This document shows, one piece after another, positions 60,096-64,000 of a stretch of DNA of 64,000 nt. The notes beneath the pieces are model-generated. The model was not told where the DNA came from. It was given only the letters and a program-made list of their open reading frames with translations, and did no database searches. Numbering within the stretch: the stretch's first letter is position 1; every line of letters starts with the position of its first letter. The translations under genes were made by a program, and so were the position numbers. The stretch is taken from the NCBI GenBank assembly GCA_965208105.1, contig OZ242318.1:448001-512000 (forward strand), written 5' to 3'. The DNA comes from Candidatus Latescibacterota bacterium (lineage in GTDB: Bacteria; Latescibacterota; UBA2968; UBA8231).

Positions 60096-60410
60096 TTATA
60101 CTACGGAAAGCGGTTCGATCCGGGCTAGTTCGTCTCGATACTGTTGCTTCAAATCCCAAAGATCCCTGGCATGTTGGGCTTGCAGCCAAAATTCAGGAGA
60201 GTTCTTGAACACGCGGGCTAGTTTCAACGCCATGATGGGCGAAACAGCACGCCGCTCGCGCACCAGTTCGTTAACGGTTTGACGAGAAACGCCCAATGCG
60301 GCAGCCAAAACAGTCGTCGTCAGACCATAATCGGGAAGAAAGTCTTCTCGCAACATCTCCCCAGGATGGGTAGGGGGAATGTTGCGTTTTTGCTTATTTG
60401 CAATAGCCAT
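60096..60410 (-). CDS. higA: HigA family antitoxin (Xre HTH)
   Basis: PTHPGEMLREDFL..LA.ALGVSRQTV..SPEFWLQAQ. Confidence 0.95.
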   Translation of the reverse strand: MAIANKQKRNIPPTHPGEMLREDFLPDYGLTTTVLAAALGVSRQTVNELVRERRAVSPIMALKLARVFKNSPEFWLQAQHARDLWDLKQQYRDELARIEPLSVV

Positions 60411-60420
60411 GGATTATTCC

Positions 60421-60701
60421 TTAATGGTAATCCGTGATTTCAACGTCGTAGGCCTCTCCGTCGACGAAGCGAAAACAGATGCGCCATTGGTCATTGATCG
60501 ATATTGAATGTTGTCCTTTGCGGTCCCCTTTCAAGGGATGCAGGCGGTTGCTCGGCGGTACCCTCAAATCGTTCAATGTACGAGCGAGATCGATGTATTC
60601 CAATCGCCGTATGGCTCTTCGAATCAGATGGCGGATAATCGTTTGAATTGTCCCGTGGTATAGAGCTGTTGAGTTGCTCTATCGGCGAATGTTTTGATCA
60701 C
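60421..60701 (-). pseudogene. higB: HigB/RelE toxin with a 1-bp frameshift near 60629
   Basis: GTG at 60701 gives VIKTFADRATQQLY..RLSAI*; LIRRAIRRLEYID..PPSNRLH.LKGDR.GQHSISINDQWRICF continues in another frame; the span is 281 nt. Confidence 0.85.
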
Positions 60702-60745: not shown

Positions 60746-60774
60746 GGGTTCATCCCCGCGTAGGCGGGGCAGCC
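60746..60774 (-). CRISPR. Single (orphan) type I-E-like CRISPR repeat with adjacent leader end; no array or cas genes in the window
   Basis: 29-nt GGCTGCCCCGCCTACGCGGGGATGAACCC with a CCCCGC/GCGGGG hairpin, preceded by AT-rich ...GGTGTTAGA. Confidence 0.65.
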
Positions 60775-60824
60775 TCTAACACCGGTGAGTGTATATATAT
60801 ACTGAACTATTGCAAACTTCGGCT

Positions 60825-62815
60825 GTGTGTCCAGCGAAGGCTGGCGTGTTCAGCAGGAGACAGTCCTGCCGGGGTAAGAGTCAGCAGCCCCGTAGCTTGG
60901 ATAGCAGGGTGGCGGGAAACCAACATCCTGAAGCCTATCGACAGAGTCTCCCTGGGGAGACTGCGAGTCATTGGGCCGTAACGAAAGTGAACGCAGAGGT
61001 GGCCTCGAAAGTGCAAAGCCCCGAAGGCCGAGCCGACAACCGGACGGCGAAGGCAGCATGGGCAGCCGAAGGCTGAATGAGACGGCTGCTTTACTTCGGC
61101 GGGTTGGTAGCGACGGCACGATGGCAAGGACATGCCGAGCAACTGGAGAAGCCCTCCTCGCCCCGGCGCGAAATCGCCGGAGCAGGGTAGGTCCTATAAC
61201 CGGAGACACCGGGAAGGGGACCGAAGGCGAGAGGGTGGCGGATGGGTGCATAGTAGCGAGGAAGCGGGGTAACGCCCGTGGAGCGAAGGCGCCCTGCTGT
61301 TGAACATTCTCCGACAACAACGGGAGGCACGGGTGGAATGATAAAAACGCCCATCACGGTGCAGGACCTGAGAAGGAGAATATACCTCAAGGCGAAGGCT
61401 GACAAGGCCTGGCGTTTCTGGGGACTGTACGTCCATGTATGCAAGAGGGAAACACTCCACGAGGCCTACAAGGCGGCCAAGCGCAATAACGGAGCCCCGG
61501 GTATTGATGGCATGACGTTTGCGGCCATCGAGCAGTCCGGCGTGGAGACGTTTCTGGAAGGCCTACGTGATGAACTGATCTCCGAGACCTATCGGCCCAT
61601 GAGGAATCGTCGGGTGGAAATTCCCAAGGGAGAGGGTACAACCCGTACTCTGGGGATACCCAGCATACGAGACCGCGTGGTCCAGGGGGCGCTCAAGCTG
61701 ATTCTGGAGCCTGTCTTCGAGGCTGATTTCCAACCGGGGTCGTATGGGTACCGGCCGAAGCGCACGGCCCATCAGGCCATTCAGCGGGTGGCGCAAGCGG
61801 TGGTTCAGAACAAGACCACGGTAATAGACGTGGACCTGGCTTCGTATTTCGACAGGATCCGCCATGACATTTTGTTGAGGAAAGTGGCGGAACGGGTTGA
61901 TGACCAGCAGGTTCTGAGGCTGCTGAAGTCCATTCTCAAGACCGGCGGCCGACGCGGCGTTCCTCAAGGGGGTGTCCTTTCCCCGTTGCTCAGCAACCTC
62001 TATCTCAACGGGGTAGACCAGATGCTGGAGCGGGCGAAGCGCGCCACTCGACGAGGGCGGTATACTTATATCGAGTATGTGCGGTTTGCTGATGATGTTG
62101 TGATCCTGGTCGACGGCTATCGGCGGTGGAAGTGGCTCGCCGCGGCGGTCGACCGACGACTTCGGGAAGAATTGGCCAAGCTCGATGTAGCGCTCAATCA
62201 CGACAAGACGCGTCGAATCGACCTGACCCGAGGCGAACACTTCGGATTCCTGGGGTTTGACTCTCGTCGAACCAGGACTCGGCGGGGGGTATGGGGCGTG
62301 CGCAACGTGCCGACGATGAAGGCACGTACGGCGCTTCTGCGCAAGCTCAAGGAGCTTTTTCGACGTTTTCGCTCCCAACCGATCGATCGGGTCATCGGCC
62401 TGATCAACCCGGTGTTGCGCGGATGGGTCAACTACTTCCGTGTGGGGCAGTCGAATCGATGCTTCAGGTATGTGAAAAACTGGGTTGAGAAGAAGATCAG
62501 ACGCCATCTGATGCGCGCGCGCCAAGGTCAGAGTTTTGGCTGGAAGAGGTGGAGTAGCCGGTGGTTATACAAAGAGCTCGGGCTATTCTCCGAGTATCGG
62601 GTGGCCTACCACCGGCCGAAAGCCCCTCCGGTACAATAGGTCCCATAGCCCTTGAGAGGAAATCAACAGGAAAGCCCGGTGCGGGAAATCCGCATGCCGG
62701 GGTTTGACGTGGCGGGAGTTGGAAACGTGATCAGGGGAGCCGGACTGAGGCCCATCGCGAAAGCGGTGGAATCGTCACCGGACCCTACCGTTGGCGCGCC
62801 AGCTCTCGACCCTAC
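60825..62815 (+). mobile_element. Full-length group II intron
   Basis: 5' GTGTG; domain V GAAAGCCCGGTGCGGGAAATCCGCATGCCGGGGTTTG; 3' ...CGACCCTAC; EBS/IBS complementarity. Confidence 0.93.
61338..62639 (+). CDS. ltrA: Group II intron reverse transcriptase/maturase (no endonuclease domain)
   Basis: GAPGIDG, LGIPSIRDRVVQ, SYGYRP, GVPQGG, YVRFADD and maturase RGWVNYF. Confidence 0.97.
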   Translation: MIKTPITVQDLRRRIYLKAKADKAWRFWGLYVHVCKRETLHEAYKAAKRNNGAPGIDGMTFAAIEQSGVETFLEGLRDELISETYRPMRNRRVEIPKGEGTTRTLGIPSIRDRVVQGALKLILEPVFEADFQPGSYGYRPKRTAHQAIQRVAQAVVQNKTTVIDVDLASYFDRIRHDILLRKVAERVDDQQVLRLLKSILKTGGRRGVPQGGVLSPLLSNLYLNGVDQMLERAKRATRRGRYTYIEYVRFADDVVILVDGYRRWKWLAAAVDRRLREELAKLDVALNHDKTRRIDLTRGEHFGFLGFDSRRTRTRRGVWGVRNVPTMKARTALLRKLKELFRRFRSQPIDRVIGLINPVLRGWVNYFRVGQSNRCFRYVKNWVEKKIRRHLMRARQGQSFGWKRWSSRWLYKELGLFSEYRVAYHRPKAPPVQ

Positions 62816-64000
62816 CAGGCCAGCTCAAGATATGTGACGATGCGCTGCTGATTCCACCCCAAAGTTGTAGCCTGTTCGACGGCCCAATGGATGGTCTTAC
62901 TGAGCGTTTCCCGCGACACGGCTCGACAGGCTTGGCCGATGGTCGTCAGCACACCATGTGGCCAGTCACGCGCACGGCCCTGCCCCATTTGGGCTATGAG
63001 GAGACTGTGCGCCAGCATCGCCAGATACAGGTGCCGGGTCTGGCCCTTGGCGCTGCGTAGCTGACAGTCTCCCATGCCCAGATGTTGCTTGCCGTCCCGG
63101 TGAAAGGTCTCCGTGCCCGTCCAGCGTTTGCGGTAGACGTTCAATATACGGCTGATCTCCCAATACACCCGGTTGGTCACCAGGTACTTGACCGGCTTCC
63201 TGCCGTTCTTGCGATCCCACAGAATCACCAGGCGGACGGGGTGATCGAGGTGGGGAAGACGCACGGTTCGGGTGTAATACCACTGTTTGCGATCGCCGAT
63301 GTCGACCCGTTTGCGCTCCTCGGGGGCGACCCCGGCGGCCCACTCGACCGCCTTCATCTCACCGCCCTTGAAACGCACCTTGCGGTTGCTCTTCAAATCC
63401 CCCACGTAGCCGCGCGTATGGCCTTGGATATGGTTGAGACTCTCGGCACTGGTGAAGTAGCAGTCAAAGGCGAAATCCCCGGGAATCTCTCGCTCCACCA
63501 CCCCGTCCACCAACTCCTTGAACAGGTCCGTGTGATTCTTGAAGGGCTCGGCCGACTCGCCTTCGACGCCCTCTTCCCGCTTGCGAAAACGACGAAACTC
63601 CAAAGGATAATGTTTCCCCGACGAACACACGTAGTTGGCGATCACGTAGTCGTGCGCAATCAGATGGCGCCCCTCGGCATGGTCCCAGAACCAACCCGCG
63701 CCCTCGATCATCTCCCCGCTATGGCCGACCAGGGTGTTGTCGATGGCGATCACCCCCCGCGCTGAATAGCGGGTCGAAGAATGACCCTGCAGCCAGGCCA
63801 AACGATGTTCGTTGAGTTGTTCCACGTCCCACGGCACCTGGGTGATCCAACGGTTCAGGCAGGATTGATCCGTGGTCTGGGCAAACTCGGCGTTGATCGC
63901 CGAAACGTTCTTGCGCTCGGCGACCATCAGCCCGGTCAGATACTCGGCAAAATGCCAGCGCTCCGGGGTGTTGGCGAACATCCAGCCGAATTCGTCCACG
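62812..64000 (-). CDS. IS701-family DDE transposase (5' end outside the window)
   Basis: YLTGL..RKN, IAIDNT, FAFDCYF and YRKRW..ETFHRDGKQHLG..CQLR. Confidence 0.9.
   Translation of the reverse strand, partial: VDEFGWMFANTPERWHFAEYLTGLMVAERKNVSAINAEFAQTTDQSCLNRWITQVPWDVEQLNEHRLAWLQGHSSTRYSARGVIAIDNTLVGHSGEMIEGAGWFWDHAEGRHLIAHDYVIANYVCSSGKHYPLEFRRFRKREEGVEGESAEPFKNHTDLFKELVDGVVEREIPGDFAFDCYFTSAESLNHIQGHTRGYVGDLKSNRKVRFKGGEMKAVEWAAGVAPEERKRVDIGDRKQWYYTRTVRLPHLDHPVRLVILWDRKNGRKPVKYLVTNRVYWEISRILNVYRKRWTGTETFHRDGKQHLGMGDCQLRSAKGQTRHLYLAMLAHSLLIAQMGQGRARDWPHGVLTTIGQACRAVSRETLSKTIHWAVEQATTLGWNQQRIVTYLELAW

Follow-up and report, generated by a model that had tools for sequence, protein, structure and literature searches.

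An endonuclease-less group II intron inserted antisense in the stop codon of an IS701-family transposase gene in Candidatus Latescibacterota

Several described group II introns each resemble, in some respect, the intron analyzed here, which lies in a 64,000-nucleotide stretch (the window) of a Candidatus Latescibacterota genome (assembly GCA_965208105.1, contig OZ242318.1, positions 448,001 to 512,000) and interrupts, in antisense, the stop codon of the transposase gene of an IS701-family insertion sequence (IS). RmInt2 of Sinorhizobium meliloti GR4, which lacks an endonuclease, resides in the inverted repeats of ISRm17, at both ends (Martinez-Rodriguez et al. 2014, PMC4615759; PMC5894124), and tolerates unpaired positions in intron-binding site 2 (IBS2; PMC4615759; PMC5894124). 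RmInt1 lives in ISRm2011-2 and also occupies ectopic sites with a similar IBS, such as oxi1 (PMC5894124). The introns Avi.groEL and EcKTE56.groEL, of the IIB1 clade, lie between bases 2 and 3 of the groEL stop codon and replace the stop (Gomes et al. 2025, PMC12584367). Twintrons, introns that home into introns and thereby into a self-renewing site, occur in Methanosarcina acetivorans and others (PMC4424553). The intron of the window combines such known themes in a new host, the Latescibacterota, and a new IS family, in antisense orientation. A search of the open-access literature, judged from its listing, turned up no account of an IS701 element that holds an intron. The intron is probably a domain V-homing, endonuclease-less element that reverse-spliced into a secondary target, a look-alike site within the IS end.

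The intron occupies 60825..62815 of the forward strand (1,991 nt, GTGTG...CTAC), antisense to the transposase gene, with boundaries set by empty sites. The 5' exon ends ...aacttcggct at 60824, GTGTG starts at 60825, the intron ends ...CGACCCTAC at 62815, and the 3' exon begins caggccagctc at 62816. These ends fit the 5' GUGYG / 3' AY rule, and comparison with the empty site reveals no target duplication, as expected of reverse splicing. Its 5' exon consists of the 23 bp at the transposase-distal IS end (IRR; 60802..60824, minus strand), which carry the 15-bp inverted repeat (IR) core; this core, CTGAACTATTGCAAA, has two changes relative to the consensus CTGGACTTTTGCAAA. The IS body with the IS701-family transposase gene fills 62816..64000 on the minus strand and continues past the window to the other IS end at genome position 512,176 (window-equivalent 64176), 176 bp beyond it. 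Minus the intron, the IS is 1,384 bp long and has the 15-bp terminal repeat core CTGGACTTTTGCAAA at both ends. The transposase matches NF033540 (IS701 family) at 185.7 bits (cut-off 150) as well as Pfam DDE_5.

On the transposase strand the insertion point lies in GAG CTG GCC TGA, between TG and A, and the A of the former stop is complemented by base 60824. The minus-strand open reading frame (ORF; 62812..>64000) now has the C-terminus ...YLELAW followed by TAG. Its new end (62812..62817) consists of TGG (Trp; 62817-62815), the final base of which comes from the intron, and TAG (62814-62812), which comes wholly from it, these four bases being the complement of the last four of the intron. Removal of the intron in silico gives ...YLELA and then TGA. 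The joined site also exists: a truncated IS copy at position 2,623,487 of the window's own genome (G000, a metagenome-assembled genome, or MAG, with an estimated contamination of 8%) has the 23-nt IS end followed directly by caggccagctcaag and no intron, and all 15 distal ends in a Candidatus Latescibacterota MAG of the same genus (G001) show the exact predicted empty site. The preliminary description of this DNA, made from its letters alone, had proposed the antisense insertion with its intron-supplied stop, the restoration of GAG CTG GCC TGA upon exon joining, a transposase essentially untouched apart from one Trp, an IS end left intact, and an intron without endonuclease, and had named intron-free IS copies with the predicted 3' end as a check. 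Each of these is borne out by the empty copies, by the ORF, by the IR core that survives in the 5' exon, and by the domain search reported below.

The groEL introns likewise sit between the second and third bases of a stop codon and supply a replacement stop. Those introns are in sense orientation in a housekeeping gene, have a large 5' insertion in domain I and hold a site that is conserved across relatives, whereas the window intron is antisense in a transposase gene, takes its stop from the complement of the intron 3' end, and sits at a site not conserved among its relatives, which lie elsewhere. Of the three possible phases, only the realised one gives a stop at once; either of the others would lengthen the ORF, by 13 or 50 codons. 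One extra Trp thus has a 1-in-3 chance and is no designed feature. Among 80 metagenomic IS relatives (loci from a transposase scan, at 55-78% protein identity), 66 have the IR motif within 70 nt after the stop codon, and by eye it usually begins 0-10 nt after that codon. Since the transposase ORF abuts the terminal repeat, an insertion just inside the repeat falls at the end of the ORF. Placement in the stop codon follows from geometry and a 1-in-3 phase, and need not be an adaptation.

All parts of the intron lie on the forward strand. The domain I core (60851..60986) matches Rfam RF02003 (group-II-D1D4-4) at 117.6 bits (gathering score 49). Next come a candidate exon-binding site 2 (EBS2; GTGCAAAG, 61011..61018), in the loop of a conserved hairpin, and EBS1 (AACCGGA, 61038..61044), in the loop of a 4-bp covarying hairpin. 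The reverse transcriptase (RT)/maturase ORF (61338..62639) encodes 433 aa in an uninterrupted frame and matches RVT_1, GIIM (maturase, X) and TIGR04416, the last at 372 bits (cut-off 300); the domain search gave no match to a nuclease (HNH, D/En) domain. The RT has the motif FADD, which is found in 15 of 19 translated relatives, with YADD in 2. Domain V (62672..62705, ends approximate) was placed by an RF00029 alignment spanning 62670-62815, whose 27.8 bits stay under the gathering score (40) owing to the unusual length of domain VI; the linker and domain VI take up 62706..62815 and end ...CUCGACCCUAC. As context for the predicted splicing and mobility, two RNA runs contain only 6% of the sampled words.

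The relatives of the intron point to its usual home. A scan with the intron-encoded protein (IEP) gave 489 relatives, and the best 80 of the 489, with 55-90% IEP identity, were kept. Boundaries could be set for 57 of the 80; the other 23, with weak or missing ends, were left out. Directly upstream of 31 of the 57 (11 flagged by the script and 20 added by eye from its output) is a 33-34-nt hairpin, GAGCCG...GAAA...CGGTT, with the intron beginning immediately 3' of it. It forms domain V of a different group II intron, and the nested intron splits its last base pair, with a 3' exon that starts with the final C; as the catalytic hairpin is split, the host intron cannot fold until the inner intron has been spliced out. 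In three of four nested loci checked with Rfam, domain I of the outer intron was found about 1.8 kb upstream on the same strand. Within the phylum, the 5' part of the intron is present in only 4 of 168 genomes surveyed. The nesting extends to the window intron's own subfamily and is not confined to remote relatives. One of the 4, a Latescibacterota genome of the same class but a different family (G095), holds two ORF-less copies of about 859 nt (L201 and L204), 92% identical, both nested in domain V, with AACCGGA and AACCAGA as EBS1. The nearest copy of the window intron is a 5' fragment at 2,092,006 in G000, 96.1% identical over 436 nt (the others reach 93.6%), and it too is nested in a domain V remnant (region 2,091,563-2,092,040). 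Such 96% similarity to a domain V-resident fragment shows that there is traffic between the two kinds of site.

The lineage is thus like the twintrons in being found mostly inside other group II introns, which provides it with a homing site that renews itself. The twintron cases named in PMC4424553 target other parts of the host intron, and the window copy itself is not nested, its 5' exon being the IS end. In the open-access papers searched, no lineage was described that uses this 3' base of domain V as its homing site. A loose domain V regular expression run over the genome returned noise only and was discarded.

A second, related intron family was seen in three genomes (L013-L023; G008, G021 and G001). 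Its members share the 3' end ...CTCGACCCTAC and follow sites of the form TAACA..(4-6 nt)..TT.ACG, and GC-rich hairpin-like repeats come after most copies. Full-length copies of about 1.98 kb each number three in G008 and one in G001, and G021 has 8 or more ORF-less copies, each roughly 750 nt long.

Target recognition was analyzed by pair counts in the alignment with relatives, as a single-sequence fold of the EBS region was uninformative (z-score 0.09). The two domain I hairpins whose loops carry EBS2 and EBS1 show 94.7% pairing in this alignment; both-sided changes occur in 5 of the 11 hairpin pairs, and in helix 2 compensatory changes affect 3 of 4 pairs. Between the second-hairpin loop and the final 7 bases of the exon, a mean of 6.03 of 7 pairs can form across 33 unique EBS1/exon combinations, as compared to 4.11 +/- 0.19 in 2000 shuffles, none of which reach it. 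The 17 combinations in which the exon does not end in GGTT give 5.88 versus 3.15 +/- 0.35 (0/2000 shuffles). The loop covaries with the exon and is therefore EBS1. The window intron has AACCGGA as its EBS1, the same sequence as in nested relatives and the perfect complement of TCCGGTT, the target in domain V. Against TTCGGCT of the IS end, 6 of its 7 bases pair, one of them as G-U, and a C.A mismatch falls at -2. The candidate EBS2 is modestly supported (mean best run 4.32 versus 3.89 +/- 0.17 in shuffles, 13 of 1000 of which attain 4.32); its partner would be TTGCA at exon positions -15..-11, 2 nt out of the usual family register of -13..-9. Taking the two IS ends together, EBS2 is complementary to TTGCA / TTTTGCA of the IS repeat out of the usual register, and EBS1 is imperfect at both ends.

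In G000, two of three distal ends (that in the window and that at 3,131,625) carry the intron and one is empty, and none of five proximal (IRL) ends is occupied. G001 contains an intact intron, found at one of 13 proximal ends and at none of the 15 distal ends. This G001 copy, 1,990 nt long and 92% identical to the window intron (~7.7% divergence), lies 22 bp inside the transposase-proximal end, pointing inward, in sense to the transposase gene and upstream of its start. Its EBS1, AGCCCAT, differs from that of the window at 4 of 7 positions and makes 5 of 7 pairs, including those with ATGG of the IS end. At 3,131,625 the IS-end/intron junction is the same as in the window, with an 877-nt ORF-deleted derivative of the intron. 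Unrelated DNA forms the 5' flank there and ends exactly at the IS terminus, and the 3' flank is not IS, the IS body having been lost; no convincing domain VI-like hairpin was found in the 3' flank of this ORF-less copy. The same junction at two loci with different flanks implies one of two events: the intron inserted again, into a further IS copy, or IS and intron transposed together as a composite. Neither the junction pattern, in the metagenome scan, nor any intron, in the 80 metagenomic IS relatives, was found (0 matches; 0/80, the latter of low power, as many of the contigs are short and identities reach only 55-78%).

RmInt2 in ISRm17 and the present intron are alike in that an endonuclease-less intron sits in the terminal repeat region of an IS, both IS ends can be used, and targeting is relaxed. 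RmInt2 occupies both repeats in several copies of its IS within a single genome, where it uses an identical IBS, and experiments have shown that it is mobile. In contrast, the window intron uses one end per species, with differing IBS1, lies just inside the repeat core of an IS701 element, and has domain V as its main target; in neither genome does the same intron occupy both repeats of several copies. RmInt1 offers a parallel in IS residence, in ectopic insertion at look-alike IBS and in ORF-deleted remnants. For RmInt1, as its source presents it, the IS is the canonical target, efficiently invaded and interrupted, whereas in the window the IS looks ectopic and its ORF is spared.

Target duplications of 6-7 bp flank 7 of 12 intron-free G001 IS copies; none was found at the intron-bearing IS copies of the window and G001. 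The G001 duplications fall at AT-rich sites, for example TTCTGA, TTAGAA and TTATAG (L024-L027, L108-L115). Members of the IS701 family are usually listed with duplications shorter than 6-7 bp.

Three further observations concern the distribution of copies. At 2,137,417-2,141,716 of G000 a piece of the intron, 63 nt long, precedes fragments of the IS body and a proximal IS end, in the order and orientation of the window, with an extra stretch of ~2.4 kb in between; this may be a third, decayed IS+intron composite, on evidence too weak to count. In G001 (C1:177,651-184,127) two IS copies stand head-to-head with their proximal ends 6 bp apart, one of them holding the intron, and a third IS copy follows ~1.4 kb further; from its arrangement the locus looks like a hot spot of nested IS insertions. 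Replication-strand bias, considered with the origin at ~2.97 Mb and the terminus at ~0.39 Mb (cumulative GC skew), was uninformative at n=3; two of the three intron copies lie within ~0.15 Mb of a GC-skew switch point.

The preferred reading builds on the anatomy, the empty sites, the EBS1 covariation, the copy distribution and the domain V nesting of relatives described above. The canonical homing site of the lineage would lie in other group II introns, at the 3' base of their domain V. With TTCGGCT|C, the IS end resembles this domain V target, TCCGGTT|C, and the IR contributes the TTGCA that may pair with EBS2. Base pairing between EBS and IBS explains both the site and the inward orientation. 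Reverse splicing 23 bp inside the transposase-distal end would have landed the intron in the stop codon, and the antisense complement of its 3' end (GTAG) would have restored a stop after one extra Trp. The insertion would be close to neutral for the IS and would therefore have persisted. The arrangement was apparently propagated at least once more in G000, by a second insertion or by IS+intron composite movement. We infer the neutrality for transposition, the order of these events and any present-day activity. On this reading the intron spreads inefficiently from one IS copy to another and has no specialisation for this element.

Four points weigh against this reading. No intact domain V target and no other intron RT is left in G000, so that the IS is currently the intron's only home there. 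The repeat variant CTGAAC is common to both occupied distal ends of G000 (others have CTGGA(C/T), and two proximal ends TTGGAC), which fits one old insertion followed by long residence in, and carriage by, the IS, and so comes nearer to the preliminary description. The intron copies differ from one another by ~6-7%, similar to the divergence among IS copies, and the IS-intron association may predate the split of the two species. Finally, ~0.5 EBS1 differences are expected at the divergence of the G001 copy, with a binomial tail of ~1e-3 for 4 of 7, and the change in G001 EBS1 looks like partial adaptation to the IS. A bolder reading is on balance doubtful: an intron parasitic on domain V may be switching host to IS701 terminal repeats, at opposite ends in sister species. 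In one of them EBS1 would have been re-tuned at four of seven positions, and in the other the IS would be left functional, so that a 3.4-kb IS+intron composite, a retro/DNA element, could transpose.

Among the rival explanations, dedicated hitch-hiking fares best and is nevertheless unlikely. It holds that the stop-codon site evolved as a harmless homing site and that the intron spread both by homing and as a composite transposon; the preliminary description had likewise seen an intron carried by, and homing among, IS copies. The two G000 loci with the same junction, different flanks and a shared CTGAAC variant agree with it, as do the intact transposase ORF and IR core and the decayed stretch at 2.137-2.142 Mb, where intron and IS may form a third arrangement with order and orientation kept. 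The second copy at 3,131,625, however, has no IS body, and the window composite lacks the target-site duplication that most intron-free G001 copies have. Recognition also counts against it: EBS1 is perfect for domain V and mismatched at -2 on the IS, and the IBS2 pairing is 2 nt out of register. All stop-codon sites of G001 are empty, its copy is at the opposite IS end, the metagenomic IS relatives hold no intron, and the closest relatives reside in domain V. The idea that the IS stop codon is the intron's own homing niche did not survive, on account of the domain V fit of EBS1 and the state of the G001 ends. Carriage by the IS keeps partial support from 3,131,625, tempered by the missing duplication. 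The preliminary description had also named copies in unrelated targets as evidence that would count against it. The flanks of the copies divide in this respect: 3,131,625 has the same junction, but the 2,092,006 fragment and both G095 copies lie in domain V, and its reading is partly refuted.

That the intron is kept because it tames the IS is far less probable. Control would act through antisense RNA across the transposase gene, arising from the read-in transcription that expresses the intron, or, at the other end in G001, by separating the gene from its upstream IS end. The geometry agrees with this, as any intron-carrying transcript runs antisense into the transposase gene and, in G001, the intron has the IS end on one side and the start of the transposase on the other; furthermore, RmInt1 is reported to block the spread of ISRm2011-2 (PMC5894124). 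Yet upstream on the forward strand there is only a weak promoter-like site (9 of 12 matches), the occupancy of G001 ends would make any control negligible, and many decayed G000 IS copies never held the intron. An assembly artefact, with the junctions as chimeric repeat joins in a MAG, is scarcely credible: the contamination estimate, and the lack of a bridge over 60780-60912 among the listed short-read contigs, are answered by the independent occurrence of the 5' junction at 3,131,625, by boundaries that match canonical intron ends and empty sites to the base, and by a depth in public run X1 of 7.4 over the intron ORF and 7.9 over the flank.

Without revealing a new mechanism, the locus provides a base-exact natural example of how an endonuclease-less group II intron survives in bacteria. 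A cost-free landing can let a copy persist even though the site merely resembles the real target. It also documents target drift: the same intron is found in domain V, at the distal IS end and at the proximal IS end, with EBS1 differing between G000 and G001. Such cases may be of use for retargeting rules and targetron design.

Contigs from four public runs, with labels that include sponge or marine metagenome, give a view of the community. The ORF-deletion joint 61417->62523 is seen in contigs of X1 and X6. The intron-skipping joint 60824->62816 occurs in the same two runs with a short side of 24 letters only, and therefore reflects other intron-free IS copies and not an empty allele at this locus. 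Summed depth in X6 is ~150-330 over the IS body and ~9-16 over the intron ORF; in X1 it is ~20-54 over the IS body, against the ORF value given above. This difference is in line with many more IS copies than intron copies. The ribozyme parts (60796-61415 and 62656-62779) reach depths of 72-306 in X1, 10-40x that of the ORF, which suggests many ORF-less or related ribozyme copies in the community.

Two features lie upstream of the IS in the window. A single CRISPR-like repeat unit (GGTTCATCCCCGCGTAGGCGGGGCAGCC) at 60747-60774, 27 bp upstream of the IS end, is unique in G000, and the same unit is repeated with 30-35-nt spacers in contigs of X1, X5 and X6; the IS may therefore have inserted at the border of a CRISPR array that has been lost or has collapsed. 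At 60096-60603 on the minus strand, just upstream of the IS, is a toxin-antitoxin pair of type II. Its HigB-like toxin ORF (60 aa, PF05015) looks short, matching positions 34-91 of the 91-position profile, and beside it is an antitoxin ORF of 104 aa with an HTH_3 match.

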